Source: Thermoanaerobaculia bacterium
GTDB lineage: Bacteria; Acidobacteriota; Thermoanaerobaculia; Multivoradales; Multivoraceae
Length of the DNA stretch: 64,000 nt
Assembly (NCBI GenBank): GCA_965116145.1
Contig: OZ220482.1
Span: 1,800,850-1,864,849 of the forward strand
Direction: 5' to 3'
Position numbers and translations under genes: made by a program. The notes under the pieces were generated by a model. That model was not told the origin of the DNA. It was given only the letters and a program-made list of their open reading frames with translations, and ran no database searches. The stretch's first letter is position 1. Each line of letters starts with the position of its first letter. This document shows positions 4,938 through 21,041 of the stretch, one piece after another.

Positions 4938-5205
4938 GGCCGTCGTCGCAATGCACGCATAAACGCTCGACTATACCGCCGTTTCGCCGAGGCAGTGTCG
5001 GTCCTGACGCCGGATCTTCGGGGCACGAACGGCGGCGCGGCCCGACGGTCAGCGCAACGCGCCGCCCTCCGACTCCGCCCGAACAGCGGTCCGGCGCCCG
5101 TCGATGCAGGCCAGGCGCGGACTGCGGCGCTGGCGCGCCCGCCGCAGACCCGGGCGTGCAACGTCCGCTCTGCACGTCCGCAGGTATCCACCGGATCGCG
5201 CGACA

Positions 5206-5235
5206 TTGACGGCGCCGGTCTTCGTTCTGCATAGT
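5206..5235 (+). promoter_or_regulatory. Candidate sigma70-type promoter for the 5276-20531 operon
   Basis: TTGACG (5206-5211), an 18-nt spacer, then CATAGT (5230-5235), about 40 nt upstream of the ATG at 5276. Pattern match only. Confidence 0.25.
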
Positions 5236-5275
5236 GCCCGCGAGATGGACGGCACGAATGGAAGCGAGCGATTGA

Positions 5276-8200
5276 ATGGCTGAACATCCTCTTGCCGAGC
5301 ACATTGGTGATCACGTGTCCTTCGCCGGACACTTCGACACGCCCGTCGTGCTGGAGGATGTCCGCCCGCTGGGAGCGCACGGATCTTCTGGCTACGAGTG
5401 TCGAGTCCGTCTACCCGATGGCGCTCTCGAGGAGACGATCATCTCCCAGGACGAGGCGGCTGCGATTCTAGGAACGAAGTCGACCGCAGAGAAGGCCGCG
5501 CCACGGCCTGCGGACGCTGGAAGGCTGCGGCTTCTCGTCGAGTCCACCCGAATCCGACTGGCCTACGCCCACGACCGCCAGTTCGCGGTCAGCCTGTCCG
5601 GCATCCGCACCCTGCCCCATCAGATCGAAGCGGTCTACCTGAGGATGCTCCCCCAGCCCCGCCTGAGGTTTCTTCTCGCAGACGACCCTGGCGCCGGCAA
5701 GACAATCATGGCGGGTCTCCTGATCAAGGAGCTCAAGCTGCGTGAGGCCATCGAGCGCTGTCTGATCCTCGTTCCCGCCCCGCTGACCATCCAGTGGCAG
5801 GACGAACTGCTGCGTTTCTTCAACGAGCCGTTCCAGATCGTCCATTCCGCGAACGACCAGCAGCAGCTCCTGAACCTGTGGGAGCGGGAGCGGCAGATCA
5901 TCGCGTCCATCGACTACGCCAAACAGGACAACGTCCGCGAGCGCGTCTGGCAGCAACGGTGGGATCTCGTCATCATCGACGAAGCGCACAAATGCAGCGC
6001 CTACACGAAGCGATCTGCGAGTCGCGACGACGTCGAGCGAACCAGGCGCTACCAGCTCGCTGAACGGCTCTCGGAGCAGTGCGACAGCCTGTTGCTCCTG
6101 ACCGCCACACCGCACCACGGCGACGACGACCGCTTCGCCCACTTCATCCGTCTGCTGGACCGCGACGTGTTTCCCGAGCCGCACCGATTGCGCGAGGACG
6201 CCGGACGCATCCGCCGGGACGTTCTGAAACTCGGTGCTGACTGTCCCTGGTCACTGCGCCGTCTCAAGGAAGACCTGAAGGACATGCGCGGCGGGCGGCT
6301 GTTCCCGGATCGTCACGTCCGGACGGTCAGTTTCGCACTGGGCCCGGACGAATACACGATCTACAAGGCGGTCACTGCCTACATCAACGAGTTTTTGCCG
6401 CAGGTGACGGGACGACGCAAGAACAGCGTCGCGCTCGCCCGCACCGTGTTCCAGAGGCGCCTCGCGAGTTCCACCCGGGCGATCCACCAGTCGCTGATCC
6501 GACGACGCCAGAAGCTCGACGACCTCCTTCGCGAACTCGACAGCCTCTCACCTGCTCAGCGTGTTCACCGGCTCACCCAACTTCGAGGCCAGCTCTCCGA
6601 CGCCGAACAGGACGAGGAGGATCTGGACGAGGCAACGCGCGATGCGCTGATCGACGAGGCGACATCGGCAGTCGAGCTCGAGCAACTGGGCGCGGAGCTC
6701 ACAGAACTGGCGGACCTCGTGGCGCGGGTCGGGCGGGTTCGCGAGGCCGGACGCGACTCCAAGCTGGTCGCGCTGCGCGAGTGTCTCCAGCGCTCTGAGT
6801 TCGATGAACTGCAGGACGGTCGCGGCAAGCTGCTGGTCTTCACCGAACACCGGGATACGCTTGATCACCTGCGAGAACACCTTGAAGAGTGGGGCTATTC
6901 GACCTGCCGGATTCACGGCGGCATGAACCCACGCGAACGCAAGACAGCGCAGGAGGACTTCAGAACGAGCCGCCAGATCTGCGTGGCGACCGAAGCGGCG
7001 GGAGAGGGCATCAACCTCCAGTTCTGCCACCTGATGATCAACTACGACCTGCCATGGAACCCCACACGCCTCGAACAACGCCTGGGGCGTATTCACCGCA
7101 TCGGACAGACGCGCGACGTGTGTGCGTTCAACTTCGTGGCGACGGCATCGGAGGACGGTCAGCCGGTCATCGAGGGCCGGATTCTCGAACGGCTCCTGAG
7201 CAAACTCGACCTCATGCGGGATGCCCTTGGCGACCGGGTGTTCGACGTCGTCGGCGAAGTGCTCTCGCTGAACAAGGTCAACCTCCCCGACATGCTCCGC
7301 GAGGTTGCCTATGAGCCACGGCGGCTGGACGACTACCTCGACGCGATCGACCGCATCGACCCCGATGTCCTCGATCGCTATGAAGAAGCGACCGGGATCG
7401 CGTTGGCGCGCGGCCACGTGGACTTCTCGGCATTCGCCGAGGCCAATCTGGAAGCCGAGGAACGACGGCTCATGCCACGCTATGTCGAGTCGCACTTCGT
7501 GAACGCCGCCCGGGCGGTCGGCCTGCGCGTGGACGCCCGTGCGGATGGGCTCTGGAGGATCGAGCACGTGCGGGCGGATCTGCGCTCCGAGCGCCTCGCT
7601 GCCGTACGGCGCCTCGGCCCACCGGAACTCAGCTACCGCAAGCTGACCTTCTACAAGGAGCACCTGGAGCAGGACCAGCACCTTGATGCTGTTCTCCTCG
7701 GCCCGGGCCATCCGGTCTATGCCGCCGTGGACGAGACGCTGAACGAACTCCTGAAGGACATCGAGAGCCGAACGGGCGTCTACGTCGACCCGCAGGCTTC
7801 CGCGCCCTATCGCGTGCACTTCTTCGACATCGCGGTACGGGGCCAGACCACGAACGGGGAGGCGACAACCATTCTTGCCGAGCTCGTGGCCGTCCGCGAG
7901 GAAACGGCCGAAGCCGTCACTGCAACCGAGCGGTTCAGGCTCGTTCCTGCGGACCTCCTCATCGACCTTCCTGACCACCCGAATCCGCCCGACACGCTTC
8001 CGACGGCCGAGCATGGACCGGCCAGCGACTTCGTCAAGACAACGGTGCAGATGGACCGGCGCAACACCGCCAGCGACGAGCGCGGTCACTACGCGGACAT
8101 TGCCCACGATTACCTCCTGAGGTCCTTCGACGTTCGCGTGCGGGCGGCGCAGGACCGGGTAATGCGGTTGAAGGGCCGGGAAGCGAACGAGCCCGAGGTT

Positions 8201-8821
8201 GCCCTGGCGCGTCAGCGTGCAGAACGGGATCTGACCGACCTTCAGCGCACCCGGCAAGAGAGGCTTGCTGGCATGAAACGGCTTCGCGTGGCGCGGCATG
8301 GCCCGGCGCGCCACGTCGCAAGTTGCCTCGTGTTGCCGCCGGATAACGCCGGCGGCGGTCTCTCCGACCTCGCCGAAGAGCAAGATGCGGGGTTGAAGCG
8401 CCGCGTCGAGCTCGCAGCGGAGGACATTGTCGTCGCCTACGAAGAGGCCCGAGGTCGTTCGTGCGAGCGTGTAGGGCATCTGAAGATCGGTTTCGACATC
8501 CGCAGCCTGGCAGCACCGGATCCGCAGACTGGCTATCGAGATCCGGTCGACGGAGTGCGGCGTATCGAGGTCAAGGGTCGGCGGCGGGGTCAACCGATCC
8601 GACTGACCACGAACGAGTGGTACAAGGCGCAGCAGCTCGGCGACACCTACTGGCTCTACGTCGTGTGGGATCCGCTCGACAACGCGCACTCGGATCCCGT
8701 CCTGATCCAGAACCCCGCCAAGCATCTCGACTACGCCAAGAAGGAGGTCATCGCGGCGCGCTACTACGACATTCCGGCAGGCGCGATCGAACAGGCAGCG
8801 CAAACCGGAAACGCCCGATGA
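5276..8821 (+). CDS. SNF2/DEAD-like helicase with C-terminal DUF3883 (PD-(D/E)xK-like) domain
   Basis: Motif I LADDPGAGKTIMAG, motif II VIIDEAHK and TATPHHG. Helicase-C ATEAAGEGINLQ...YDLPWNPTRLEQRLGRIHRIGQ. C-terminal GFDIRS...RRIEVKGRR...LTTNEWYKA...YWLYVVW matches the DUF3883 restriction-endonuclease-fold module. Confidence 0.85.
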   Translation: MAEHPLAEHIGDHVSFAGHFDTPVVLEDVRPLGAHGSSGYECRVRLPDGALEETIISQDEAAAILGTKSTAEKAAPRPADAGRLRLLVESTRIRLAYAHDRQFAVSLSGIRTLPHQIEAVYLRMLPQPRLRFLLADDPGAGKTIMAGLLIKELKLREAIERCLILVPAPLTIQWQDELLRFFNEPFQIVHSANDQQQLLNLWERERQIIASIDYAKQDNVRERVWQQRWDLVIIDEAHKCSAYTKRSASRDDVERTRRYQLAERLSEQCDSLLLLTATPHHGDDDRFAHFIRLLDRDVFPEPHRLREDAGRIRRDVLKLGADCPWSLRRLKEDLKDMRGGRLFPDRHVRTVSFALGPDEYTIYKAVTAYINEFLPQVTGRRKNSVALARTVFQRRLASSTRAIHQSLIRRRQKLDDLLRELDSLSPAQRVHRLTQLRGQLSDAEQDEEDLDEATRDALIDEATSAVELEQLGAELTELADLVARVGRVREAGRDSKLVALRECLQRSEFDELQDGRGKLLVFTEHRDTLDHLREHLEEWGYSTCRIHGGMNPRERKTAQEDFRTSRQICVATEAAGEGINLQFCHLMINYDLPWNPTRLEQRLGRIHRIGQTRDVCAFNFVATASEDGQPVIEGRILERLLSKLDLMRDALGDRVFDVVGEVLSLNKVNLPDMLREVAYEPRRLDDYLDAIDRIDPDVLDRYEEATGIALARGHVDFSAFAEANLEAEERRLMPRYVESHFVNAARAVGLRVDARADGLWRIEHVRADLRSERLAAVRRLGPPELSYRKLTFYKEHLEQDQHLDAVLLGPGHPVYAAVDETLNELLKDIESRTGVYVDPQASAPYRVHFFDIAVRGQTTNGEATTILAELVAVREETAEAVTATERFRLVPADLLIDLPDHPNPPDTLPTAEHGPASDFVKTTVQMDRRNTASDERGHYADIAHDYLLRSFDVRVRAAQDRVMRLKGREANEPEVALARQRAERDLTDLQRTRQERLAGMKRLRVARHGPARHVASCLVLPPDNAGGGLSDLAEEQDAGLKRRVELAAEDIVVAYEEARGRSCERVGHLKIGFDIRSLAAPDPQTGYRDPVDGVRRIEVKGRRRGQPIRLTTNEWYKAQQLGDTYWLYVVWDPLDNAHSDPVLIQNPAKHLDYAKKEVIAARYYDIPAGAIEQAAQTGNAR

Positions 8822-8855
8822 CCCGGCCGCGCTACAGCGCCAGAGACTGCCCGAC

Positions 8856-10772
8856 ATGCGCATAGACCGCATCGAGATCAAGAACTTCCGGTCGATCCGG
8901 AATCTGACCGTCGACCTCGGCGACACGACCGTCTTCGTCGGCCCGAACAACGCTGGCAAGACAGCAATCCTCGAAGCCCTCCGCATCGCGCTCACGCGTC
9001 GCTGGGGCCAGCGCGGCACCGGCTTCAGCGAGTACGACATCCACATGGCCGACGAGGAAGCCGACCCCAGGACGTCGAGCGGCGTCAGCATCGAGCTGAC
9101 ATCGGAGGAACAGACCTCCGGCGAGTGGCCCGACGCCATCGTCGAGGACCTGGGCGACATCGTGCAGTTGGACCTGGACACCGGCCGGCGTTCCATCTCC
9201 CTGCGAGTACGGTACAGATGGGACGCGGACACGGACAGCTTCGAGCCGAGCTGGGAGTTCCTCACCGCCGACCGGAAGCCGATGATAGGCCACAGCGCTC
9301 GCCGGCTCAATCTAGAAGGGCTCTGGCGCTATCTGCCGGTGTTCTACCTCGGGGCGTTGCGCGACGCGGGGGACGAGTTCTCGGCGCGCTCGTCCCAGTT
9401 CTGGACCCGGTTGCTCAAGGACCTGAACATCCCACCGGAGATCGAGGCCCGAGCACTGCGGGTACTGGACCTGCTCAATCGACGACTCCTGAAGGCCGAC
9501 CCACGCCTGACTGAGATTGCAGAGACCCTGTCCGGCGCGACCAATGTCGCGGCCCGCGACCGGGAAGGCGGTCTCGACCTGAGGATGGTGCCGCTCAAGA
9601 CCTGGGACCTGATGTCGCGGGCCGAGATCATCCTGCGCAACGAGCAAGATGCACCGTGGCTCCCGCTGAGGCGCCAGGGGCAGGGAATCCAGAGCCTCTC
9701 GGTCATCTTCCTGTTCCGGGCGTTCGTGGACCACCTGCTTGCTGAGATCTATGGACAGGACAGCGAGCCGGTGCTGGCCCTGGAGGAACCGGAGACGCAT
9801 CTGCACCCGCAGGCCGTGCGCACACTCTGGCAGGAAGTCGACACCCTACCGGGCCAGAAGATCGTCACCACACACTCGCCGTACTTCGTTCAGCACGTTC
9901 CGTTCCGCGATCTGCGCCTGGTCCGCCTGACCGCGAACGGGACCGAAGTGTGCTCACTTCCGGCCAGCTTCTCCGAGCACTTCTCGCCGTCGGACGACCT
10001 TGACGCCGCAGTGGCGAACTCGAGCGGCCTGCTGACCTACGAGCGCGCATCGGAAACGCTGACGGTTCACGGCCTGCTGAAAGAAGATCTCTACCGGACG
10101 CTGCTCGAATGCCGTGTGCATGCCGAGAACCGTTCCGATCTCGAGTCGCGGCTTCGCGATCTGAAGGACCGCTCGTCCCTGTACGTGACCGATGAAGACC
10201 TGCAGGCTCTCGAAACCCAGGCCCGGAGGATGCGCGGGGAGATCTTCTTCGCGGAGCGTTGGCTGATCGTCGAAGGGCAGGCCGACTACCTGCTCGTGCA
10301 TGCCATCGCACATGCTCTGGACTACGACCTTGACCGCCACGGCGTCTCCGTCATCGACGCCCAGAACAACGGCAACCCAGCTACGTTCGCTGTGCTGGCG
10401 AGGGCGCTGGACATACCCTGGCTCGCAGTGTTCGACGGCGACGACGCAGGCACGAGGTTCATTCAGCGCATCGCGAAACGCGGCTTTCGCGGCGACAAAT
10501 CGGTCTCACGTTGTCGCCGCCACCCGGACGGCGACCTCGAGGCGCAGCTTGTTGCAGACGGCCTCGGACCGGAGCTGCGCGAGGTGTTGTCGGCGCTGGA
10601 CGTCCACGACGCGCATGAACTGGACGACGATCGCCTCGCCGCCTGTCTGCGGAAGAACAAGACGGCCTACGCGGCAGAACTCACAAGACGTCTTCGTGGC
10701 GACAGGGAGCTGGCCCAGCGAGCACCCGAGGCGTTCCGCACTGCGATCAACGACCTGCCGGGACTGGAGTGA
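8856..10772 (+). CDS. gajA: OLD-family ATP-dependent endonuclease (ABC-type ATPase + TOPRIM), GajA-like
   Basis: N-terminus MRIDRIEIKNFRSI...FVGPNNAGKTAILEAL (Walker A). LALEEPETHLHPQ (Walker B/D-loop). C-terminal TOPRIM WLIVEGQADY...VFDGDDAG. The stop overlaps the next start (TGATG). Confidence 0.8.
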   Translation: MRIDRIEIKNFRSIRNLTVDLGDTTVFVGPNNAGKTAILEALRIALTRRWGQRGTGFSEYDIHMADEEADPRTSSGVSIELTSEEQTSGEWPDAIVEDLGDIVQLDLDTGRRSISLRVRYRWDADTDSFEPSWEFLTADRKPMIGHSARRLNLEGLWRYLPVFYLGALRDAGDEFSARSSQFWTRLLKDLNIPPEIEARALRVLDLLNRRLLKADPRLTEIAETLSGATNVAARDREGGLDLRMVPLKTWDLMSRAEIILRNEQDAPWLPLRRQGQGIQSLSVIFLFRAFVDHLLAEIYGQDSEPVLALEEPETHLHPQAVRTLWQEVDTLPGQKIVTTHSPYFVQHVPFRDLRLVRLTANGTEVCSLPASFSEHFSPSDDLDAAVANSSGLLTYERASETLTVHGLLKEDLYRTLLECRVHAENRSDLESRLRDLKDRSSLYVTDEDLQALETQARRMRGEIFFAERWLIVEGQADYLLVHAIAHALDYDLDRHGVSVIDAQNNGNPATFAVLARALDIPWLAVFDGDDAGTRFIQRIAKRGFRGDKSVSRCRRHPDGDLEAQLVADGLGPELREVLSALDVHDAHELDDDRLAACLRKNKTAYAAELTRRLRGDRELAQRAPEAFRTAINDLPGLE

Positions 10773-12700
10773 TGGCGAACCCCCTGGAACGGACACTGCA
10801 AGGGCTCAGGTGCATGCAGAAGATAGCCGTCAGGTGGGACAAGGGGCCCCTTCTGGTGCTGGCCGGCCCGGGCGCGGGAAAGACGCGGGTGTTGACCCGA
10901 CGGATCGCTCGTTTGCTCCTGGAGTCCCCGGAACAGCGGTTCCGTGTACTCGGGTTGACGTTCACGAACAAGGCGGCTCACGAGATGAAGAACCGGGTTG
11001 CCGCGCTGGTTCCCGATGCCGTGGATCGAGCCGAGATCAACACGTTCCACGGGTTCTGCGCCCAGATTCTGCGCCAGCACGGAGTCCACATCGGAGTCAG
11101 ACCGGACTTCGAGATCTACTCGCGGACCGCCGACCGCAAGGCAGTACTGGCAGACGCCCTCCGGCGTGCCGGACGTCGTTTCGGTGATGACGACAGTCAG
11201 CTCCTGTGCGGCATCGACAGACTGAAGGACGCCTTGATCGGTCCGGAGCAGGCAAGACCGTACCTGCAGGACCGTGGCGACATGGCGCCCGAGGCTGTCG
11301 AGCGGATCGGACTTGCCTACCGTCTGTACGAAGAAGAACTACGTCGGGCCAACGCTCTGGATTTCCGTTCCCTGATTCGCTTGACAGTCGAGCTCACCGG
11401 TCACTCAGCACTTGCTCACCACCTCCGTACGATGTACCGGCACTGGCTGGTTGACGAGTTTCAGGACACGAACGGCGCTCAGTACGAGCTGCTCCGGCGC
11501 ATGGCAGGCGACAACTTCCGGCAGTTGTTCGCCGTCGCTGACGACGATCAGATCATCTACGAATGGAACGGTGCCAGCGTGCGCCGCATTCGTAGCCTGG
11601 TGGACGACTTCAAGTGCGAGGTCGTTCAGCTCACCGACAACTTCCGCTGTCCACCCAGCGTAGTGGAGGCCGCGAACCGTCTCGTCGTCTACAACGTTCG
11701 GCGGACCACCGCCAAGGCGGCCGCCGAGTCCGTCGCTGAACGATCAGAGGGCAACGAAGAGATCGACTACCGAGTGTTTCCCGACGATGAAGACGAGGTC
11801 GCGTGCACTGCGGCCGAGATTGCCGGCCTCGAAGCCTCGGAGCGCGAGGAGACGGCAGTGCTCGCACGAAGCCGCGCGCTTCTTGAGACTGTGCGGGCAG
11901 GATTGCAGGCGTTGAGTGTGCCCGCGGCGCTGCTGGCGCGGCGCGACGATTTCGCATCGCCACAGGTGCGCTGGCTCGTCGCCTTCCTGAAGCAGATCAA
12001 TCGGCCACTCGACCGACGCAACATGTCAACGCTGATCGGCGCCTTCTCGCGCTTCTCCGATGTCTCTCCAGAACCCGAGGAAGTGGCCGCGCGGTCGGAA
12101 ACGAACCAGATCACGCTGCTCGCCGCCTGGCTGGACGTGGTGCGGCTAGCGGCGCCCTCGACGCTGCCGGTGGTCGAAGCGGCGGCCTGCCTCACGACGG
12201 GGGCCGTTCGCCTGTCGGATGCTCTCAACAACGTCATGGCGTGCTTCAGTGAATGTGCGGACGACGATCTGAAGGACGACATGGCCGCCTGGCGCCGGAT
12301 CGAGAACGAGATACGGCGCGGCCAGCGCACGATGCCGCTCGATCGGTTCCTTCAGGAGATGGAGCTGCGCTCCAAGGAGCCGCCCTCGGCGCCGGGCGCA
12401 GTCTCCCTGAGCACGATTCACGGCGCCAAGGGTCTCGAATTCGACAGGGTCTATCTGATCGGTCTTGCCGAGGAAGTGCTGCCCTCCTGGCACAGCATCA
12501 CCGGCGGCAACGGAGGCGCCGCGATCGAGGAAGAGCGCCGCAGTTGCTTTGTCGCCATCACCCGAACCAGGCAACGGCTGGTCCTGTCGAGAGCGGAGCG
12601 GTACAAGGGGAGGCCGAAGACGCCGTCGCGCTTCCTCCGGGAAATGGGACTGACCGACAATCCCGTCTGCGACGTGCCGGGACGCGAGAGGTTGGCTTGA
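10772..12700 (+). CDS. gajB: UvrD/PcrA/Rep-type SF1 helicase, GajB-like (copy 1)
   Basis: ATG at 10772 (a GTG at 10769 is an alternative) overlaps the OLD stop. SF1 motifs: VLAGPGAGKTRV, LGLTFTNKAAHEM, WLVDEFQDTN, FAVADDDQIIYEWNGA, DNFRCPP, STIHGAKGLEFDRVYL and EEERRSCFVAITRTRQRL. Confidence 0.85.
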   Translation: MANPLERTLQGLRCMQKIAVRWDKGPLLVLAGPGAGKTRVLTRRIARLLLESPEQRFRVLGLTFTNKAAHEMKNRVAALVPDAVDRAEINTFHGFCAQILRQHGVHIGVRPDFEIYSRTADRKAVLADALRRAGRRFGDDDSQLLCGIDRLKDALIGPEQARPYLQDRGDMAPEAVERIGLAYRLYEEELRRANALDFRSLIRLTVELTGHSALAHHLRTMYRHWLVDEFQDTNGAQYELLRRMAGDNFRQLFAVADDDQIIYEWNGASVRRIRSLVDDFKCEVVQLTDNFRCPPSVVEAANRLVVYNVRRTTAKAAAESVAERSEGNEEIDYRVFPDDEDEVACTAAEIAGLEASEREETAVLARSRALLETVRAGLQALSVPAALLARRDDFASPQVRWLVAFLKQINRPLDRRNMSTLIGAFSRFSDVSPEPEEVAARSETNQITLLAAWLDVVRLAAPSTLPVVEAAACLTTGAVRLSDALNNVMACFSECADDDLKDDMAAWRRIENEIRRGQRTMPLDRFLQEMELRSKEPPSAPGAVSLSTIHGAKGLEFDRVYLIGLAEEVLPSWHSITGGNGGAAIEEERRSCFVAITRTRQRLVLSRAERYKGRPKTPSRFLREMGLTDNPVCDVPGRERLA

Positions 12701-15519
12701 TGGCGAACGACCGGCGCCTGATCGAGGACTACCTTCCCCTTGACGCCCTCAACGCCATCGCGTCCAAGGAAAAACTGCATCCCCGCCGCTACGTCGCACT
12801 GGTCCACTACTGGCCGGCACGCCGCCCCATCACGGCCTGCCGAGCGGCGATCTACGCGGCGCTTGTGCGGGCCCCTGATGCCGACGATGCACGCGCCGAG
12901 GCCGCAGCCTTCGTCACCAGGCTCGCATCCTACGCACCCGATCCCGAGGTGGTCGCGAAGGCAGCGGCGGAACTCAGGGATCTGCACGATGGGCGGGCTC
13001 CGAAAGTGCTCGATCTGTTCGCCGGCGGAGGGGCGATCCCGCTCGAAGCAGCTCGCCTCGGTTGCGAGAGCCATGCCGTGGAGTACAACCCCGTCGCGCA
13101 CCTGATCGAGCTTTGTACGCTCGTCTATCCGCAGACGTTCGGCCCGCAACTGGCGGATGAATATCAGCAGTGGAGCGAGCTGATTCTGGACCGCATGCGC
13201 GCCGACATCGGAGACCTCTACGAGCCGATCGAGGTTCCTCCGACAGAGGAAATAGGGCGCCAGGATGAGCTCTTCGGAACCATGACCGACGCGACCGGAA
13301 CTCATGCCGATCCGGTGTCCTGGATCTGGGTCCGCACGGTGCCTTGCCGTCGCCCCGGGTGCGGAGCGCCCGTCCCCCTGGTCAGACAGTCATGGTTGCG
13401 AAAGAAGAACGGCGCGATTGCTGCCGTTCCGAGACTCGAAGATGGCAACCGTCTGTGCTGGGACATCGTATCCGGAACCACTGCCCGTGAGATATCCGAG
13501 AACACGGGCCAGACCGGTTCGGGACAGGCAGTCTGCCTCGCCTGCAGCACTCCGGCGCCTGCGGGCCACGTCAAGGAGATGGCGGTTGCCGGGCGAATGG
13601 AGGAATCGCTCTCCGCAATCGTGGCCGCGCTGCCGCCGAAGAAAGCAGGAGGAAAGAAACAGAGAAAGGTGTATCTGAGCGCCAACCCGACCCTGCTACC
13701 AGACGAAGATGCGTGCCGCCATCGGCTTGAAGCGCTACTTGTTGACCATGCCCGGCTTGAACCTCTACACGAGACGATGAACACGGCTGACCCAACGACT
13801 GTGGCTGGACGTGGCTACGGGATCGAACAATGGCACGAGCTGTTTACGCCGAGGCAGCTGCTCGTCCTCTTCACGCTCGTCAACCACATCCGCTGCGCTC
13901 ACGGAGAGATGCTCGAGCAAGACGTACCGGAAGACCGCGCGCGAGCGTTGATGACTTTCTTCGGGATGGCGTTCGGCCGCCTAGTAATTTCGTTCAACAG
14001 CTTCGCTAGGTGGAGGCCAGGCACTCAGGCGACGGAGGGCATCTTTGATCGGCAAGCCCTGAAAATGATATACGACTACTCTGAGATCAACCCCTTGGCT
14101 GATACACAAGGGTGTTTGCAACATTCATTTGATCGAGAAACGTTTTGCATTCGCGAGCTCGCCAAGATCAGGAATCCCTGTATCGTCCATCGTGGCAACG
14201 CCGAAAAGCTCTTCTACGAGGACGAGACGTTCGATGCGGTCATTACCGATCCGCCGTACTACAGCAGCGTCTACTACGCCGATCTGTCGGCGTTCTTCTA
14301 CGTCTGGCTGAAGCGGATCCTCGGCGATCTCTACCCAGAGCACTTCGCCCTTGCTCACCCGCCCAAACGGCGGGAGGCCGTGGCGCAGCCAAGCGAGCAC
14401 GACGGGAACGCAGAAAAGGCCAAGGAGCACTACGAACGTCTGATGCGCAACTCGCTGGCCGAAGCGCGGCGCGTCCTGAAGCCCGGCGCCCCGCTGGTCT
14501 GCGTCTATGCCCACCGGACCACGGAGGGATGGACGACCCTGATTCGCGCACTCGTCGAAGCGGGTATGACGGTCACTGAGGCCTGGCCCATGCAGACGGA
14601 GTCGCGCGGACGCGTCAACGCTCTCGGCGCCGCGGCGCTTTCCGACAGCATCTTCTTCGTCGCGCGCCGCCGCGAACAGACCACTGTCGGCCAGTACGAG
14701 ACCGACGTGTCTCCCCTGCTTCAGAGGATCGCCCGAGAGCGCGTGAAGACCCTCTGGAACAACGGCAAGGGGATCGGAGGCGCCGACCTGCTGATGGCCG
14801 CCGTCGGGGCAGGACTCCGGGCCTACACCCAGTTCGCTCGGGTGAACTACGCGAATGGTGAACGTGTCTCCGCCGAGGACTACCTCCGCGATGTCGAAGG
14901 CGCGGTGCTGGAGGTGATGCTTGACGAGATCTTCGATCTGCGCGGAGCGGCAGTCGCCGTCGTAGACCAGGTCACGCGCTTCTACATCCTGTGGAGGTTC
15001 ACCTACCAGGAGACGGCCATCGCAGCCGGCGACGCCTACGTCTTCTGCTATCCGCAGGGCATCGAGATCGATGGCCCCGAGGGCTTGGCGGGCAATGCCC
15101 CGAAGCTCGTCGAGAAGACGGGCAGCAAGAAGACGGGTAGCAAGTTCCGCGTCCGCAGTTTCTCGGAACGCGGCGAAGATGAAGCTCTGGGGCTCACTGC
15201 GAACGGCAAGGCGGCGCCGCTCATCGACGTGCTCCACCGGCTCCTCTACCTGCTGGAGGAACGGCCCGCGGCTGCCGGCGAGTACCTGAAGAATGCAAAC
15301 CCGAATACCGAACAGCTTCGTCTCGTGGCGCAGGCGCTTGCCAAGCCGGTCCTCTCTGGAGCAAGCGCCCAGAACGGCTCCCCGACCGCTGAACTCGGCG
15401 CGCTGGCTCGGCTGAACGCCAACTGGCGGGCGATCGTCGAGGGCGCCGCGTATGCGCGGGAGATCGAGTCTCTTGCGACCGGTGAGAGAGACCTGTTCAG
15501 CGGAGACCGACATCCATGA
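12700..15519 (+). CDS. DUF1156-type DNA methyltransferase (N6-adenine/N4-cytosine class) with zinc-ribbon insert
   Basis: Track ORF 12253..15519 trimmed to the ATG at 12700 (MANDRRLIEDYLPLDALN), which overlaps the upstream stop (TGATG). DUF1156 N-terminal signature LPLDALN..SKEK...HYWPARRP. SAM motif I VLDLFAGGGAIPLEA. Cys4 insert (CRRPGC...CLAC). Catalytic motif IV ITDPPYY. Confidence 0.8.
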   Translation: MANDRRLIEDYLPLDALNAIASKEKLHPRRYVALVHYWPARRPITACRAAIYAALVRAPDADDARAEAAAFVTRLASYAPDPEVVAKAAAELRDLHDGRAPKVLDLFAGGGAIPLEAARLGCESHAVEYNPVAHLIELCTLVYPQTFGPQLADEYQQWSELILDRMRADIGDLYEPIEVPPTEEIGRQDELFGTMTDATGTHADPVSWIWVRTVPCRRPGCGAPVPLVRQSWLRKKNGAIAAVPRLEDGNRLCWDIVSGTTAREISENTGQTGSGQAVCLACSTPAPAGHVKEMAVAGRMEESLSAIVAALPPKKAGGKKQRKVYLSANPTLLPDEDACRHRLEALLVDHARLEPLHETMNTADPTTVAGRGYGIEQWHELFTPRQLLVLFTLVNHIRCAHGEMLEQDVPEDRARALMTFFGMAFGRLVISFNSFARWRPGTQATEGIFDRQALKMIYDYSEINPLADTQGCLQHSFDRETFCIRELAKIRNPCIVHRGNAEKLFYEDETFDAVITDPPYYSSVYYADLSAFFYVWLKRILGDLYPEHFALAHPPKRREAVAQPSEHDGNAEKAKEHYERLMRNSLAEARRVLKPGAPLVCVYAHRTTEGWTTLIRALVEAGMTVTEAWPMQTESRGRVNALGAAALSDSIFFVARRREQTTVGQYETDVSPLLQRIARERVKTLWNNGKGIGGADLLMAAVGAGLRAYTQFARVNYANGERVSAEDYLRDVEGAVLEVMLDEIFDLRGAAVAVVDQVTRFYILWRFTYQETAIAAGDAYVFCYPQGIEIDGPEGLAGNAPKLVEKTGSKKTGSKFRVRSFSERGEDEALGLTANGKAAPLIDVLHRLLYLLEERPAAAGEYLKNANPNTEQLRLVAQALAKPVLSGASAQNGSPTAELGALARLNANWRAIVEGAAYAREIESLATGERDLFSGDRHP

Positions 15520-18416
15520 CACCCGATTGCCGTCCCTGGCTGCAGTGCGTCGATCTGCATCCCGACGTCCTCTCCGACGGTTTCTCCGAGGACATCTTCG
15601 CGCTCGACCTGGGCCCTCTGGCCGACTATCTGACCGCCAGGGACCTCGGATTGACGAAAGCTGAAGCAACGCGAGTACCCGCGGTCTACCGGGACGCAGG
15701 CAGTTTCTTCGCCGCGTCGTACCTGACCAACGGCATCAGATCCCTCCTCGAAGACGTCCTTGGCCGCCTTGCCGGAGCACAAGGGAATCGGGTTCTCAGG
15801 CTCCAGACACCGTTCGGCGGCGGCAAGTCCCACACTCTTGCCGCCCTGCTGCACGCCGCCCGGTCGCGCGCCGCGCTTGACGCGTTGCCGGAGGCGACCG
15901 GACTTCCGCGGCCCGAAGGGGTGCGGGTGGCCGTGGTGGACGGGCAGTTCTTCGACTCGACGAGCGGGAAGCGGATCCCGGACGGGGAGATCTCTGCAAG
16001 GACGCTCTGGGGCTGGATCGCCTGGTCCCTCGGGGGACAGGCCGGCTACGAACTGGTGCGCGCGCAGGACGAAGCCCGGGTCGCACCGGGAGGTGACGTG
16101 CTCATCGAACTGCTCAAGGGCGGACCGAGTCTCATCCTGCTCGATGAATTGCTGCAGTACCTCATCAGCGCCGGCGGAATCCGCGTTGAAGAGACGACCC
16201 TCCGCGACGAGACGCTGCTGTTTCTTCAGCGGTTGACAGTTGCGGTCGGAAGCGTCGACAGCGCGGCGATCGTTCTTTCCCTTCAATCCAGCAAGCGCGA
16301 ATCCCTCGAGTACACGAGCCTGTTGCAGAAAGTCGAGCACCTTGCTGCTCGCAAGGATCAGCGACGAGAGCCGGTCGAAGGAAACGAAGTCCTCAACGTC
16401 ATCCAGCGCCGGCTGCTCGCCCGAAGGCCCGACGCGAGTGTCGCCGCAGCGGCGGCGGAAGCCTGTGGTCGGGTGTTCGCCCAGATGCGCCGCGCCTACG
16501 CGAACGGAGATGGAGAGCAGCGGCAAGCCGAGGAAGACGGACAGGCCCTGCGCAAGCGGATCATCGCGGCCTACCCATTCCATCCGGCGCTCGTCGACCT
16601 GATGCGCGAACGCTGGGCCGCCATCCCCGAGTTCCAGCGCACACGCGGTGCACTGCGCTTCCTAGCTTCGTGCCTGCGCACTGCCCACTCGGCAGGCTCC
16701 TCCCGCCCGCTGCTCGGACCGGGTGACGTTCCCATCCACGACGCCGCCGTCCGGCTCGCGTTCTTCAAGGAGGTCGGTCAGCGCGAGGACTTCCTGGCTT
16801 GCCTGGAACACGACTTCATCGGCGCCAACGCGCGAACGCGCCGCATCGACGACCGGCGCGCGCGCGAAGTGACGACGGAAGCAGGCAAGCAGCCGGCCAC
16901 CCGCCTCGCCACGGCGATGCTGCTCTATTCGTTCGGCGGCCTCCGGCGCGGTGAAGGTGACCAGGGCGAGCTCCTTCCACCAGGAATCGGCGAGCCGGAG
17001 CTGCTGGCCGCGAGCATAGGACCGGACCTTGACACGACCACCATTCAGGCGTGCCTCAAGGACCTCAGGGAACAGTGTCTGTACCTGCACTTCGACGGCG
17101 TGCGCTACTGCTTCAAGAAGGACCCCAACGTCACGCTGCTCGTCGAACAGGAGGCCGAAACGGTCGGTCGCGACGACGGCAGCATCACGGCTCGCATCCG
17201 ACAGATGATCGAGGAGCGGCTGGCCGGGCAGTCCGCCATCGTCTGGCCCACCAGACCGGGCGACGTGCCGGACCGGGAACCGCAGTTTCTCCTCGCGTAT
17301 CTGCCGCTCGAGTTCGCCGCTCAACCCGCCTCGACGCAGCAACGCAAGGCGCTGGCGATCTGCGAGCAGTACGGGAACCGTCAGCGCGAGTTCCGCAACG
17401 GCCTGGGGTTGGCTGTCCCATCGGCCGATCAGGTCGAGATCCTGCGTCGCGGTGTACGCTACCTCCTCGCCGTCGAGCGGATTCGGGCCAAGTGGCGCGA
17501 GCACAATCTGACGGATGCGCAACGAAGCCAGCTTCGGGAGCGTCTCTCCACCGAGAAGACGGCAACCGAGTCCGCCTTGCTCAAGCTCTACGGCGAGGTC
17601 CAGCTGCCCATCTCCCGCAACGGGAAGCTGACGCTGGATAAGGTCAGCATCGGCGGCCGCCCGCTCCAGACGACGCTCGACGGCAAGAAGCAGGCCCTTA
17701 TCCAGCAGCGTCTGACGGAGCTGCTAACCACGGTCCAGAAACGGGTCTTCGGATCGCTCGCTCCAGGCAAGATCGTCGAGCTGTTCGGGCTTGGCGATCC
17801 GGGAGAACATGCTGCCGGCGTCGCCACGGCCGATGTCCTGAAGGGCTTCTACGAGTTCCTCGGACTTCCCCGCCTGCTCTCGACCGAGGCCGTGCGCCGG
17901 GCGGTAGCGCGCGGAGTGGAAACGGGTCTCTTCGGCTACACAACCGGGCGGCCGCAACTCGGAGACGACGGGCGCTATCTGGTTGACCGGAGCCGCGTCA
18001 CATTCGAACGCCGCGTGGCTGAAGACGAGATCGACCTGGACACGGGTCTGCTGATTGCCCCTACGGCTGTTCCCGAAGAAGCACCGGCGACCGGCAACGA
18101 AATGAACCGCGAGGCTCAGGGCAAGGAGGACACAGGATACCTGGCAGAGGGCGGCGGCCCGGGCGAGTGCAGCTTCACCGAGGAAGGATCGCGCCTGGCG
18201 CCCTCCACCGGCGACCATCGCCGAATCGACGTTTCCTTCGTCGCAGACAAGGGGCGCTTCTACGAGGCCTGGAACGCGCTGGCCAATCTTGCGGAAGCCG
18301 CGGGCACCATTGCCATCAGTGCTTCGGCAACGGCCCCTGAGGGCTACAGCCAGGCCAAACTGGAGAACGGTGTGTTCGAGCCGCTGCGAGAGCTCGGGCT
18401 CCTCAAGGACGATTGA
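15516..18416 (+). CDS. DUF499-type P-loop ATPase
   Basis: The ATG at 15516 overlaps the methylase stop (ATGA). N-terminal CVDLHPDVL...IFALDL...YRDAGSFFAASYLTNG, P-loop TPFGGGKSHTL and Walker B LILLDELLQY match the ATPases that accompany DUF1156 methylases. Confidence 0.75.
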   Translation: MTPDCRPWLQCVDLHPDVLSDGFSEDIFALDLGPLADYLTARDLGLTKAEATRVPAVYRDAGSFFAASYLTNGIRSLLEDVLGRLAGAQGNRVLRLQTPFGGGKSHTLAALLHAARSRAALDALPEATGLPRPEGVRVAVVDGQFFDSTSGKRIPDGEISARTLWGWIAWSLGGQAGYELVRAQDEARVAPGGDVLIELLKGGPSLILLDELLQYLISAGGIRVEETTLRDETLLFLQRLTVAVGSVDSAAIVLSLQSSKRESLEYTSLLQKVEHLAARKDQRREPVEGNEVLNVIQRRLLARRPDASVAAAAAEACGRVFAQMRRAYANGDGEQRQAEEDGQALRKRIIAAYPFHPALVDLMRERWAAIPEFQRTRGALRFLASCLRTAHSAGSSRPLLGPGDVPIHDAAVRLAFFKEVGQREDFLACLEHDFIGANARTRRIDDRRAREVTTEAGKQPATRLATAMLLYSFGGLRRGEGDQGELLPPGIGEPELLAASIGPDLDTTTIQACLKDLREQCLYLHFDGVRYCFKKDPNVTLLVEQEAETVGRDDGSITARIRQMIEERLAGQSAIVWPTRPGDVPDREPQFLLAYLPLEFAAQPASTQQRKALAICEQYGNRQREFRNGLGLAVPSADQVEILRRGVRYLLAVERIRAKWREHNLTDAQRSQLRERLSTEKTATESALLKLYGEVQLPISRNGKLTLDKVSIGGRPLQTTLDGKKQALIQQRLTELLTTVQKRVFGSLAPGKIVELFGLGDPGEHAAGVATADVLKGFYEFLGLPRLLSTEAVRRAVARGVETGLFGYTTGRPQLGDDGRYLVDRSRVTFERRVAEDEIDLDTGLLIAPTAVPEEAPATGNEMNREAQGKEDTGYLAEGGGPGECSFTEEGSRLAPSTGDHRRIDVSFVADKGRFYEAWNALANLAEAAGTIAISASATAPEGYSQAKLENGVFEPLRELGLLKDD

Positions 18417-18599
18417 GCACCGGCAGGCGAGGGAGCACGCCCTCCCAAGGCCCTGTTCGGGTTCGACGAAGGAGTACGTCTTGCCCCTGACCGGAAGCAG
18501 TCCGCCACACCGGGAGCGTCTTCCGGTTCGGTATAGCCATACGACCTTGGCGCCAAGCGCGTGCGGGGCGTTCCGCGCCACCTTCAACCGGCGGCCGGC

Positions 18600-20531
18600 A
18601 TGACGACGCCTTACCTTGCAGCTGCGCTGCAGGAACTGACGGACAGGCAGCGGCAGGCCGTCGAGTGGGACGACGGACCGTTGCTGGTGATTGCCGGGCC
18701 GGGTTCGGGGAAGACGCGGGTGCTGACCTGCCGGGTGGCGCGGTTGCTTGAGGACTCGCCGAAGGAGCAGTTCCGTGTTCTCGGGTTGACCTTCACGAAC
18801 AAGGCGGCCGGCGAGATGAGGACAAGGATCGCCGCCATGGTTCCCGACGCCGTGGACCGCGCGGAGATCTGCACGTTCCACGGCTTCTGTTCCCGGTTCC
18901 TGCGCCAGCACGGCAGCCGTTGCGGCATCAGGCCGGACTTCAGGATCTACGCACGAAACTCCGACCGACGGCTGCTTCTGGGCGAAGCCCTGCAGCGCAA
19001 CGCTCTGGATCTCGAAGACGAGATCCAGCCCCTGCTGGCCTGCATCGACCGTCTGAAGAGCAGGCTCATCGACCAGGAAGACGCGGCGTCGCGGTTGCGC
19101 GAGCACCCCGGTCTGGCGTTCGAGCTTTCCGATCGTGTCGATATCGATCGGATCGAGCTTGCCTACCGGCTGTACGAAGACGAGCTGACCCGGACCAACG
19201 GCCTCGACTTCAACTCGCTGCTCCTTCGTGCATTCCAGCTACTGGATCGCCCGACGCTGTCCCGATACTGCAGGAGGACCTACCGATACTGGCTGGTCGA
19301 CGAGTTCCAGGACACGAACGACACGCAGTATCGGCTGCTTCGGCGCATGGCCGGAGACCACTTTCGGGAGTTGTTCGCCGTCGCGGACGAGGACCAGACG
19401 ATCTACGAATGGAACGGCGCGAGTGTCGAACGCATCGACACCCTGAAGACGGATTTCGACTGCGCCGTCCTGCAGTTGTCGGAGAACTTCCGCTGTCCGC
19501 CCCGGGTCGTGGAAGCGGCGAACCGGCTCGTCGCCAACAACCGTCACCGCGAGCAGTCCAAGGCGGCAGCCACGCCCGCAGGCCGGCACGCCCTGGGTGG
19601 TGCGGCGATCGAGTACGAGGTGTTCCCCGATGACTGGACGGAAGCCGAGAGGATCGCCAGGAAGATGACCGGCCTCAAGCGGGACGAGCGCCCGGAGACG
19701 GTGGTGCTCGCCAGGACCCACGCGCTGCTGGAGGCGGTTCAGACGGCCCTGGAAGAGCTGGGCGTGCCGACGGCGCTGCTGACGCGGCGCGAGGAGTTCT
19801 CGTCGCCGCAGATGCGGTGGTTCGCGGCCTGTCTGAAGCAGATCCATCAACCGAACGACCGGGGCAACCTGGCGGCGCTGACGGACGCTTTCCAGGACTT
19901 CGCCGGCGTTCGCCCAAGGCCGGAGAAGGTCATCGAGCGCTCGAAGAAGGACCGGGTCACGCCGCTGGCCGCCTGGCTCGACAAGGTTCGGCAGGCAGCC
20001 CCGGTGATGCTGCCGCTGGTCGAAGCGGTTCAGCGCCTGGAATCGGGAGATGTCCGCCTGACCGAGGCTGTCGCCAGCGCCGCCGAGTGCTTCGGGAGCG
20101 AGCAGGAAGACGGCGATCTGAAGGACGACATGATCGCCTGGCGTCGGATCGAACAGGAAGTGCGGCAAGCGAGGGGCGACGTGCCGCTCGAGGAGTTCCT
20201 CCAGGAGCTGGAACTGCGGTCCAAGGCGCCGCCGGCGGCGGCGGATGCGGTCGCACTGAGCACGGTTCACGCCGCGAAGGGTCTGGAATTCGACCGGGTC
20301 TACCTGATCGGCCTCGCGGACGGCGTGTTTCCTTCGTGGTACAGCGTCCAGAGGGGCGACGATAGCGCGGCGATCGAGGAAGAGCGCCGCAGTTGCTTCG
20401 TGGCGATCACCCGCACGAAGAAGAGGCTGCACCTGTCGCGGGCAAGGGAGTACAACGGCTGGGAGAAGACGCCGTCGCGGTTTCTCGCGGAGATCGGCCT
20501 GGAGAGGGAGGGTTCCCACAAGACCCGATAG
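18600..20531 (+). CDS. UvrD/PcrA/Rep-type SF1 helicase (copy 2, paralog of 10772..12700)
   Basis: ATG at 18600 (the track GTG at 18561 is possible). Same SF1 motif set: IAGPGSGKTRV, WLVDEFQDTN, FAVADEDQTIYEWNGA, ENFRCPP, STVHAAKGLEFDRVYL and EEERRSCFVAITRTKKRL. Confidence 0.85.
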   Translation: MTTPYLAAALQELTDRQRQAVEWDDGPLLVIAGPGSGKTRVLTCRVARLLEDSPKEQFRVLGLTFTNKAAGEMRTRIAAMVPDAVDRAEICTFHGFCSRFLRQHGSRCGIRPDFRIYARNSDRRLLLGEALQRNALDLEDEIQPLLACIDRLKSRLIDQEDAASRLREHPGLAFELSDRVDIDRIELAYRLYEDELTRTNGLDFNSLLLRAFQLLDRPTLSRYCRRTYRYWLVDEFQDTNDTQYRLLRRMAGDHFRELFAVADEDQTIYEWNGASVERIDTLKTDFDCAVLQLSENFRCPPRVVEAANRLVANNRHREQSKAAATPAGRHALGGAAIEYEVFPDDWTEAERIARKMTGLKRDERPETVVLARTHALLEAVQTALEELGVPTALLTRREEFSSPQMRWFAACLKQIHQPNDRGNLAALTDAFQDFAGVRPRPEKVIERSKKDRVTPLAAWLDKVRQAAPVMLPLVEAVQRLESGDVRLTEAVASAAECFGSEQEDGDLKDDMIAWRRIEQEVRQARGDVPLEEFLQELELRSKAPPAAADAVALSTVHAAKGLEFDRVYLIGLADGVFPSWYSVQRGDDSAAIEEERRSCFVAITRTKKRLHLSRAREYNGWEKTPSRFLAEIGLEREGSHKTR

Positions 20532-20665
20532 GACGAGCGCGAAGACTCACGAATGGCTCGACGGTCGCCTCCACCATCACAGCCGGCGCCGGGTCCGAGG
20601 GCCGCTCCTCGCGGCGCAAGGGCTTCCGAAGCCGCCCGGCGCCCCCGCAGACCCGGCCGCTCCAC

Positions 20666-20695
20666 TTGACAGCCGCTCCGGTCCTCTCCTACGCT
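20666..20695 (+). promoter_or_regulatory. Candidate sigma70-type promoter of the ilv-leu operon
   Basis: Perfect -35 TTGACA (20666-20671), an 18-nt spacer, then TACGCT (20690-20695). It lies about 75 nt upstream of the leader ORF and about 350 nt upstream of ilvE. Confidence 0.35.
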
Positions 20696-20766
20696 CCGAC
20701 CCACGATCTACCAGTCGGCAGGTCGACTGAACACCCCCACCGCAACAGGATTCATCGAACCGGCTG

Positions 20767-20943
20767 ATGACGCGCCCGGAAACAGTGCCGTATCTGCGGG
20801 GCGCTTCTTCGTCCCGGGCTGGCGTACGCAACGCTGGAGGCGGCCGCGCTCTCCGACGGGCGTTCCGGTTGCCGGCCCGCCAGGGTTCCGCCGGCGTCCT
20901 GCTGCTGCTTCTGGTTCTGATTCTTGCGACCACAGGGGGCTGA
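20767..20943 (+). CDS. Candidate ilv-leu leader peptide (58 codons from ATG 20767; a TTG at 20869 would give 24 codons)
   Basis: The open frame ends ...Q G S A G V L L L L L V L I L A T T G G stop. There are ten consecutive Leu/Val/Ile codons at 20896-20925, and four of them are T-ending codons that are rare in this GC-rich DNA. The stop lies about 30 nt upstream of an intrinsic terminator. No convincing SD sequence was seen, so the start is uncertain. Confidence 0.4.
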   Translation: MTRPETVPYLRGASSSRAGVRNAGGGRALRRAFRLPARQGSAGVLLLLLVLILATTGG

Positions 20944-20975
20944 CAGGCGCACCAATCGAATACCGAGCGACCTTG

Positions 20976-21005
20976 AGCCCCCAGCACCGCCTGGGGGCTT
21001 TTTTT
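20976..21005 (+). terminator. Rho-independent terminator (attenuator) upstream of ilvE
   Basis: AGCCCCCAG (20976-20984), loop CACCGC, CTGGGGGCT (20991-20999), running into T7 (20999-21005). The upstream GGGGGCT (20935-20941, overlapping the leader stop codon) can pair with AGCCCCC of the 5' arm as an antiterminator. Confidence 0.65.
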
Positions 21006-21041
21006 GGTTCGGCCGTCAGTGGAAGTCAGCGGAGCAACTGC

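Follow-up and report, generated by a model that had tools for sequence, protein, structure and literature searches.

The DNA analyzed here is a stretch of 64,000 nucleotides (nt) from a Thermoanaerobaculia bacterium of the Acidobacteriota (GenBank assembly GCA_965116145.1, contig OZ220482.1, positions 1,800,850 to 1,864,849 of the forward strand), referred to as the window in the following. Between window positions 5276 and 20531 six intact open reading frames (ORFs) follow one another on the + strand, each ending in a single stop codon according to the ORF listing and a read-through check. They comprise the three core genes of an Hma defence system (hmaA, hmaB and hmaC), a Gabija pair (gajA and gajB, copy 1) embedded behind hmaA, and a second gajB paralogue, gajB2, behind hmaC (Table 1). 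By its gene content this is a real and tightly packed cluster of predicted anti-phage genes, far beyond chance, and five of the six genes recur as a block elsewhere. We consider it likely that two separable anti-phage systems are combined in this locus, probably on a single transcript, with gajB2 left over.

Table 1. Features of the putative defence cluster (window positions; lengths in amino acids, aa).
Feature	Position	Strand	Description	Basis
Candidate promoter	5206..5235	+	sigma-70-type, TTGACG-18-CATAGT, 41 nt upstream of hmaA	Consensus scan only
hmaA	5276..8821	+	SNF2 helicase with C-terminal NOV_C/DUF3883 PD-(D/E)xK nuclease, 1181 aa; predicted Hma effector	Pfam, PADLOC, motifs
gajA	8856..10772	+	Class-2 OLD-family nuclease, ABC ATPase and TOPRIM, 638 aa	Pfam, PADLOC, motifs
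gajB, copy 1	10772..12700	+	UvrD/PcrA/Rep-like SF1 helicase, 642 aa; partner of gajA	Pfam, PADLOC
hmaB	12700..15519	+	DUF1156 N6-adenine/N4-cytosine-type DNA methyltransferase, 939 aa, large insert between motif I and motif IV	Pfam, PADLOC, motifs
hmaC	15516..18416	+	DUF499 STAND/ORC-like ATPase, 966 aa; predicted Hma sensor or assembly factor	Pfam, PADLOC, motifs
gajA remnant (probable)	18536..18603	+	3′ end of a lost second gajA, its TGA overlapping the gajB2 ATG (ATGA)	DNA profile
gajB2	18600..20531	+	Second, orphan UvrD-like GajB paralogue, 643 aa, outside the conserved block	PADLOC, Pfam

Neighbouring genes of the cluster are closely joined. A gap of 34 nt is left between hmaA (stop 8821) and gajA (start 8856), TGATG overlaps connect gajA with gajB (10770–10774) and gajB with hmaB (12698–12702), and an ATGA overlap connects hmaB with hmaC (15516–15519). 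Between the hmaC stop at 18416 and the gajB2 ATG at 18600 there is a gap of 183 nt. A preliminary description of this DNA had listed six ORFs on one strand with these junctions, and its coordinates were exactly reproduced. The mechanical ORF list places two starts further upstream (hmaB 12253, gajB2 18561); the starts at 12700 and 18600 are favoured by family alignments and by DNA homology boundaries. The scan that yielded the candidate promoter returned 2 sites compared to 1.1 expected. Terminator-like sites on the + strand within the cluster are weak, and their number (9) equals that in shuffled sequence (9.1). Therefore a convincing internal terminator is lacking, in accordance with the earlier statement that no intrinsic terminator was seen inside the operon.

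The domain assignments proposed previously were borne out for all six proteins by profile hidden Markov models, and Pfam and PADLOC agree for each of the six genes. None of the six proteins reached an NCBIfam equivalog cut-off. HmaA contains Helicase_C, SNF2-rel_dom, ResIII and NOV_C domains (Pfam) and is matched end to end by the PADLOC HmaA model PDLC00659 with 628 bits (residues 36–1149). GAGKT at 139, DEAH at 235 and a C-terminal FDIRS...IEVKG with the D...ExK pattern are present. HmaB combines DUF1156 (PF06634) with N6_N4_Mtase (PF01555) and reaches 353 bits with PADLOC HmaB; an insert of about 400 residues lies between FAGGG at 107 and DPPY at 517. HmaC carries DUF499 (PF04465, 104 bits), a Walker A motif GGGKS at 101–105 and a Walker B motif LILLDE, and reaches 321 bits with PADLOC HmaC. 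An N-terminal HEPN motif (Rx4-6H) was looked for in HmaC and not found. With 168 bits HmaC remains below the cut-off of 1200 of the NCBIfam model DUF499_antiphage (PLD-helicase type), consistent with a different DUF499 subtype. The three core genes thus reach the PADLOC HmaA, HmaB and HmaC models, and the Hma label given to them earlier can be retained. Each of them occurs once and on one strand, with two genes embedded at one junction, and the PADLOC Hma rule allows up to three embedded genes per junction (quoted in 10.1101/2024.01.29.577857).

The two genes embedded in the order hmaA-(gajA-gajB)-hmaB-hmaC had been described as a Gabija-type OLD/UvrD pair between the Hma helicase and the methylase/ATPase genes, and both parts of this description stand. 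GajA contains AAA_15, DUF2813 and OLD-like_TOPRIM domains (Pfam) and is matched over residues 1–635 of 639 by PADLOC GajA PDLC00062 with 803 bits; the PADLOC GajB model PDLC00114 matches GajB copy 1 (GajB1; Pfam UvrD-helicase and UvrD_C) at full length with 698 bits. In GajA the Walker A motif GPNNAGKT at 29, LEEPETHLHPQ and, for the TOPRIM domain, VEGQAD at 472 and DGD at 527 are found, and the helicase motifs of GajB1 are visible in the alignment. An OLD ATPase-TOPRIM GajA with intact catalytic motifs is hence followed by an adjoining and co-oriented UvrD/PcrA/Rep-like helicase whose motifs are equally intact, as in Gabija. The best matches of GajA in the PDB are Ts OLD (6p74, three-segment alignment) and Bp class-2 OLD (6nk8). 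With 638 aa in comparison to 528 of Ts OLD and a TOPRIM match to 6nk8 at E = 1.4e-6, the protein appears compatible with a class-2 helical TOPRIM insert. By sequence it is nearer to 6p74 and 6nk8 than to GajA of Bacillus cereus, to which the phmmer match is confined to residues 1–67. The B. cereus GajB chain was absent among the PDB matches at E <= 1e-20.

A side observation concerns both gajB genes. At GajB1 residues ~418–496 (12025–12260) the DNA homology to many relatives breaks and then resumes, and gajB2 shows corresponding breaks at about 18981–19280 and 19871–20109. These may be fast-evolving segments of the helicase surface.

Other defence systems were considered for the cluster and rejected. 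A link to MADS, suggested in the preliminary description, was not substantiated: HmaB reaches only 47 bits with PADLOC mad2, no other mad genes are found in the cluster, and the match of GajA to NCBIfam MAD3 (63 bits, cut-off 420) covers only the P-loop residues 3–43. Similarly, HmaA reaches 338 bits with NCBIfam DISARM_DrmD, the cut-off being 610. PglZ, DrmB (DUF1998) and PLD domains are absent from all six proteins in Pfam, which also sets aside DISARM and BREX proper.

To place the locus among its relatives, a GajA-anchored scan with one genome per species was carried out. It gave 80 loci (L001–L080), which were then searched by tblastn with the six window proteins. The gajA-gajB pairing is kept in 76 of them. 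The order hmaA-gajA-gajB-hmaB-hmaC occurs in about 22 of these species-level genomes, which according to the record titles belong to at least six phyla and include Pseudomonadales, other Gammaproteobacteria, Binatia, Vicinamibacterales, Spirochaetia, Gemmatimonadota/Longimicrobiales, Rhodothermales and others. The recurrence in unrelated taxa that the preliminary description had proposed as a check is therefore given. Nucleotide homology to the composite relatives amounts to 72–82% and covers exactly 5271–18416, with its limits at the start of hmaA and the stop of hmaC, and HmaA is 74–88% identical in these relatives (tblastn). In all 13 intact composites hmaA is followed by a short gap, and gajA/gajB as well as gajB/hmaB overlap by 1 or 4 nt; at hmaB/hmaC such an overlap is present in 12 of the 13. 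The tight start/stop coupling noted earlier is thus a conserved property. The same order with the same junctions across at least six phyla indicates that the block spreads horizontally as a unit. Conserved flanking genes, for example an integrase, were not found among the composite loci. An exact-protein look-up of GajA for genomic contexts gave no record, and the search for phage or prophage carriage gave no relative of GajA in a viral contig collection.

The modules within the block have not evolved in complete unison. Correlations of the distance matrices are higher within the modules (HmaA-HmaC r = 0.91, GajA-GajB r = 0.79) than between them (r = 0.55–0.66; all Mantel p < 0.0005), and the block therefore seems to be mostly co-inherited, with some exchange between modules. 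In addition, hmaB occurs in two allele classes in otherwise conserved composite blocks, with ~43% vs ~70% identity, compared to 73–88% for HmaA and HmaC. By this measure hmaB alleles are exchanged independently of the rest of the block. Residues 301–400 are the most variable part of HmaB among the relatives, even within one allele class. Together with the allele classes this suggests a swapped nested target-recognition domain (TRD) and hence a swapped methylation specificity. The variable insert fits the nested TRD described for BREX-related (BR) systems (PMC12839542). The contrast between the alleles is located at window positions 12738–14230 (HmaB residues ~13–510) and was seen in the loci L001, L007, L008 and L024.

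Further observations were made on the carriers. Identity within the GajA clade is 60–80%, even between very distant phyla. Metagenome-assembled genomes are frequent among the carriers, and names such as Poriferihabitaceae, Candidatus Multivorans and RHO/IRC/SB bins point to sponge or marine symbionts; judged from record titles only, genes may be exchanged intensely within one habitat. Decaying composites were also observed: hmaC or hmaB is interrupted by insertions of 1.2–2 kb in L008, L025, L029 and L072, hmaA is largely deleted in L034, L042 and L066, and both gajA and gajB are frameshifted in L078.

Each of the two modules is also found without the other. In about 50 of the 80 loci gajA-gajB of the same Gabija clade occurs without closely related Hma genes, and in L009, L011, L059 and L065 the DNA homology begins at the gajA start codon. 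Housekeeping genes prevail in the flanks of the 50 stand-alone loci, and HsdM-type methylases and integrases number only three each; on plasmid p1 of Methylocystis bryophila the pair lies between type IV secretion and ParB genes. At least seven loci (L003, L017, L022, L026, L040, L059 and L068) keep an intact gajAB next to stubs of hmaA (3′ end), hmaB (5′ end) or both. The loss of Hma around a persisting Gabija has thus occurred repeatedly. In a neighbour-joining tree of GajA the stand-alone loci are basal, and full, partial and Hma-free loci are intermixed in the crown clade. A single embedding with subsequent spread and recurrent losses would agree with this topology, the tree being only a rough guide.

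Hma relatives were collected by a metagenome scan with HmaA. Hma without Gabija was found in L082, L083, L087 and L088, where HmaA is 63–69% identical and hmaB follows within ~15–35 nt of hmaA. Elsewhere the hmaA/hmaB junction carries other cargo: DarT-DarG (L084, 3758–5503), a PDC-M48B/LmuA-like gene (L092, 2217–3868), Septu PtuA with a second gene (L102, 6319–8441), a lone Old nuclease (L129, 5511–7358) and SIR2/pAgo-associated-like genes (L101, 13081–15009, and L104). Several ORFs in the junction gap match no PADLOC model (e.g. L089 3535–4449 and L092 2217–2954). Separability and varied junction cargo reproduce the published hotspot of defence systems embedded in Hma.

The sixth gene, gajB2, stands apart from this block. 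GajB2 contains UvrD-helicase and UvrD_C (Pfam), matches PADLOC GajB PDLC00114 with 701 bits, aligns end to end with E. coli UvrD and is 59% identical to GajB1. Its best match among 5.8 billion proteins, with 63% identity, is the GajB of an ordinary Gabija pair (L002). A GajB-like gene after hmaC was found neither in the 80 GajA-anchored loci nor in the Hma loci examined. By these comparisons GajB2 belongs to the same GajB clade; a recent duplication of gajB1 does not account for it, and it does not represent a "post-hmaC" family either. The GC content at third codon positions is 0.85 for gajB2, 0.78–0.82 for the five-gene block and 0.85–0.93 for host genes.

The origin of gajB2 is suggested by the gap in front of it. 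A profile of 77 family gajA 3′ ends matches 18536–18588 at profile positions 167–219 of 236, with E = 2.5e-4 on a 300-nt target, and the similarity of about 55 nt is readable by eye in the alignment. In the whole window, on both strands, only a single unrelated match outscores it, and a chance match of the profile in this 183-nt gap is therefore unlikely, roughly 1 in 1000. A probable gajA 3′ remnant in front of it means that gajB2 is most likely left from a second Gabija system: a pair formerly at the site would have lost its gajA, probably on arrival of the block. Several observations speak against the remnant. The match is weak at E = 0.1 window-wide. Local protein alignment of the spacer frame with GajA C-termini was non-significant, 17 of 200 shuffles reaching the score. 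A tblastn search for a gajA remnant in 18417–18599 gave no match, and in an ungapped nucleotide register test the agreement was confined to the last 15 nt. As the signal was obtained with the gapped DNA profile and the alignment alone, the remnant is rated as probable. In the preliminary description the second UvrD had been seen as the closing element of the operon. This design is not supported, in view of its absence from all related loci examined, its identity of at most 63% to any protein found and the probable gajA remnant before it.

Alternatively, gajB2 could be a retained, working helicase, either as an alternative partner of GajA, giving wider triggers or resistance to anti-Gabija proteins, or recruited by Hma. 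Its 643-codon ORF is still intact despite the loss of the presumed gajA, all SF1 helicase motifs are kept along with 164 of 173 family-conserved residues, the matches to the GajB model and to UvrD/PcrA are strong and end to end, and the remnant frame still closes in an ATGA overlap with the gajB2 start. However, GajB2 deviates from the family at nine conserved positions (H>R, R>Q and R>G are among the changes), the joint second-highest number among 72 sequences, exceeded by one of the 71 others. Furthermore, the arrangement is seen in no other genome examined, the protein is without a close relative, and the untranslated gap upstream is without a recognized ribosome-binding pattern. A working gajB2 is therefore a tentative possibility, and we favour a leftover.

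The genes present, their catalytic motifs, the recurrence and limits of the block and the separability of its modules could be observed directly, and by analogy with described systems we infer from them how the composite may work. The outer Hma system, also called type-1 DUF499-centred BR, would be the first line of defence and resemble restriction-modification. Host DNA would be methylated by HmaB at a site that the nested recognition domain of this protein determines, HmaC would scan for or recognize foreign DNA or serve in assembly, and HmaA would damage foreign DNA by translocating and nicking. HmaA has been reported to confer protection against T4 on E. coli by itself, by means of its nickase domain (PMC11232893). 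The Gabija cassette in the hmaA/hmaB hotspot would form a GajA:GajB complex. For Gabija of B. cereus a 4:4 complex of GajA and GajB was described (PMC10781630, PMC10822852); there, site-specific nicking by GajA is inhibited by nucleotides, and GajB acts as a sensor of DNA ends and a (d)ATP/(d)GTP hydrolase (10.1101/2023.05.02.539174). The complex encoded here may likewise nick DNA and burn (d)ATP/(d)GTP when nucleotides fall or when phage proteins expose DNA ends, so that Gabija would provide a second, abortive layer of defence. Phage proteins antagonizing RecBCD sensitize phages to Gabija (PMC12407980). Nesting would give co-expression, by the conserved stop/start overlaps, and co-transfer; no contact between the two systems would be required.

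Some points weigh against such a composite of independent systems or against its proposed biochemistry. GajA is remote from GajA of B. cereus, the single well-studied representative, so that site-specific nicking and nucleotide sensing may not transfer, and a class-2 OLD of Burkholderia behaves differently (PMC10568477). In Halomonas, overexpression of HmaB left the T4 sensitivity unchanged (PMC11232893), and the restriction-modification-like logic of Hma is thus itself putative. Moreover, conservation across phyla and translational coupling of gajB with hmaB would also be expected of a functionally coupled system. Such coupling could be of the guard type, with Gabija silent as long as Hma works and firing when a phage anti-restriction protein disables Hma, like PrrC in EcoprrI or the proposed PARIS/Gabija backup in BREX; here the two would be genetically separable and synergistic. 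The composite is conserved, coupled across the gajB-hmaB boundary and spreading as a unit, its modules are largely co-inherited, and exactly this role was proposed for embedded OLD-ABC modules (10.1101/2024.01.29.577857, discussion; PMC12839542). Ocr-type and RecBCD-antagonizing phage proteins are indeed reported triggers of Gabija (10.1101/2024.01.29.577857; PMC12407980). About 50 loci, however, harbour the same Gabija clade in intact form and without Hma, frequently next to housekeeping genes, so that its retention does not require a guard role. We regard guarding in this locus as unlikely. The same small chance is given to the broader idea that conservation of the Hma::Gabija block reflects a functional dependency, be it a guard or HmaB methylation that spares host DNA from nicking by GajA.

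The preliminary description went further and leaned towards one integrated system rather than two neighbours. This can be read as a single machine in which the HmaB mark and HmaC would gate both the GajA TOPRIM and the HmaA PD-(D/E)xK nuclease and all three helicases would be obligate. The six co-oriented genes with overlapping junctions and the recurrence of the five-gene order in many phyla would agree with such a machine. It conflicts with the occurrence of each module alone in close relatives, with the decay of Hma genes around an intact Gabija, with unrelated cargo at the insertion site elsewhere, with the independent swapping of hmaB alleles and with the third helicase being unique to this genome. 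The comparative data do not favour a functional fusion, and a single machine appears very improbable. Two separable systems travelling together remain the preferred explanation of the locus.

Nested defence is a recently recognized organizing principle of prokaryotic immunity, and the crosstalk between host and embedded system is almost unexplored. Due to its conserved mobile composite, stand-alone modules, decayed intermediates and swapped hmaB alleles the family offers a convenient natural test bed, in which synergy and independence of a restriction-modification-like system and an abortive OLD/UvrD system can be contrasted. If a dependency were true, selection would act on the block as a whole, as a two-layer system beyond mere hotspot cargo, and GajB2 could be an alternative helicase partner. 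As an annotation the locus is ordinary and unsurprising to a specialist; the orphan gajB beside the Gabija cargo is unique.

The cluster is neighboured by a divergent SNF2 helicase gene (1998–4937, − strand) and by ilvE-ilvB-leuA-leuC-leuB genes. The SNF2 helicase was considered as a seventh component and rejected, as it is divergent, lies outside the conserved block and is nearest to SCO1167-family helicases; matches to ZorD and DpdE are limited to the helicase core. The first 500 of its 979 residues match no Pfam family. A LeuA-like gene (394–2331, − strand; HMGL-like and LeuA_dimer) overlaps this ORF by ~330 nt, and since these are the longest ORFs at least one start codon must lie further downstream than listed. 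On the other side, the strong terminator at 20975–21007 was rejected as the end of the defence operon, being part of a Leu/Val/Ile leader-peptide attenuator. This region (20666–21043) contains a promoter-like TTGACA-18-TACGCT at 20666–20695, a small ORF (end at 20943) that closes with a run of ten Leu/Val/Ile codons (VLLLLLVLIL), and a GC-rich hairpin of 10 base pairs with T7 at 20975–21007, 36 nt before the likely ilvE ATG at 21043. By these features it is a predicted branched-chain amino acid leader-peptide attenuator of the ilvE-ilvB-leuA operon. No Rfam match was obtained in 4000–26000 and no tRNA in the 64-kb window. The non-coding flanks (4938–5275, 18417–18545 and 20532–21010) showed no homology to any of 160 related loci, and an attachment site or insertion scar is therefore not definable.

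Compared with described Gabija systems (Doron 2018; Schiltz 2019; PMC10568477; PMC10781630; PMC10822852), the same pair is present, with full-length matches to the GajA and GajB subfamilies. In contrast, GajA is very distant from that of Bacillus cereus, and GajB with ~640 aa is UvrD-like along its full length. The biochemistry of this pair may be nearer to the class-2 OLDs of Burkholderia and Xanthomonas. In PrrC, nested in the EcoprrI type I restriction-modification locus, an ABC-ATPase abortive effector is likewise embedded in a modification-based system, the textbook precedent for an embedded gene with a functional guard role (cited in 10.1101/2024.01.29.577857). PrrC is, however, an anticodon nuclease physically masked by EcoprrI, whereas the Gabija clade found here also lives alone. 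With type-1 DUF499-centred BR loci (PMC12839542) the cluster shares the DUF499 ATPase, an N6-methyltransferase with nested TRD, a helicase-restriction endonuclease, the lack of PglZ and an OLD-family ABC-TOPRIM module inside the core locus; OLD-ABC/TOPRIM modules were described there as backup effectors within BREX and BR loci. Over half of the type-1 systems carry an N-terminal HEPN domain, in contrast to HmaC of this cluster, and that study emphasizes the split PARIS type, whereas a fused GajA type with a UvrD partner is found here.

The closest likeness is to Hma with an embedded system (PMC8565338; 10.1101/2024.01.29.577857; PMC11232893). Core genes, order and the same-strand position of the cargo between hmaA and hmaB are identical. 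The two embedded genes belong to the commonest reported cargo class, which is ABC-ATPase-based. Embedded genes are carried by 62.7% of Hma systems and share the orientation of the host system in 96.7% of cases (10.1101/2024.01.29.577857), and a cargo hotspot between hmaA and hmaBC has been described (PMC11232893). Septu is the commonest known cargo (10.1101/2024.01.29.577857) and PARIS, Ppl and GmrSD-like systems also occur, whereas the cargo is a class-2 OLD/UvrD Gabija in the present case. Gabija is named as an embedded system in the discussion of that study (10.1101/2024.01.29.577857); an explicit cataloguing of Gabija in Hma could not be confirmed. Unlike the described composites, this one belongs to a conserved clade that crosses phyla, and its orphan gajB after hmaC fits no described pattern. 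As the nested Hma layout is already published (10.1101/2024.01.29.577857, PMC11232893, PMC12839542), the locus is a new example of a known architecture with a different known cargo.

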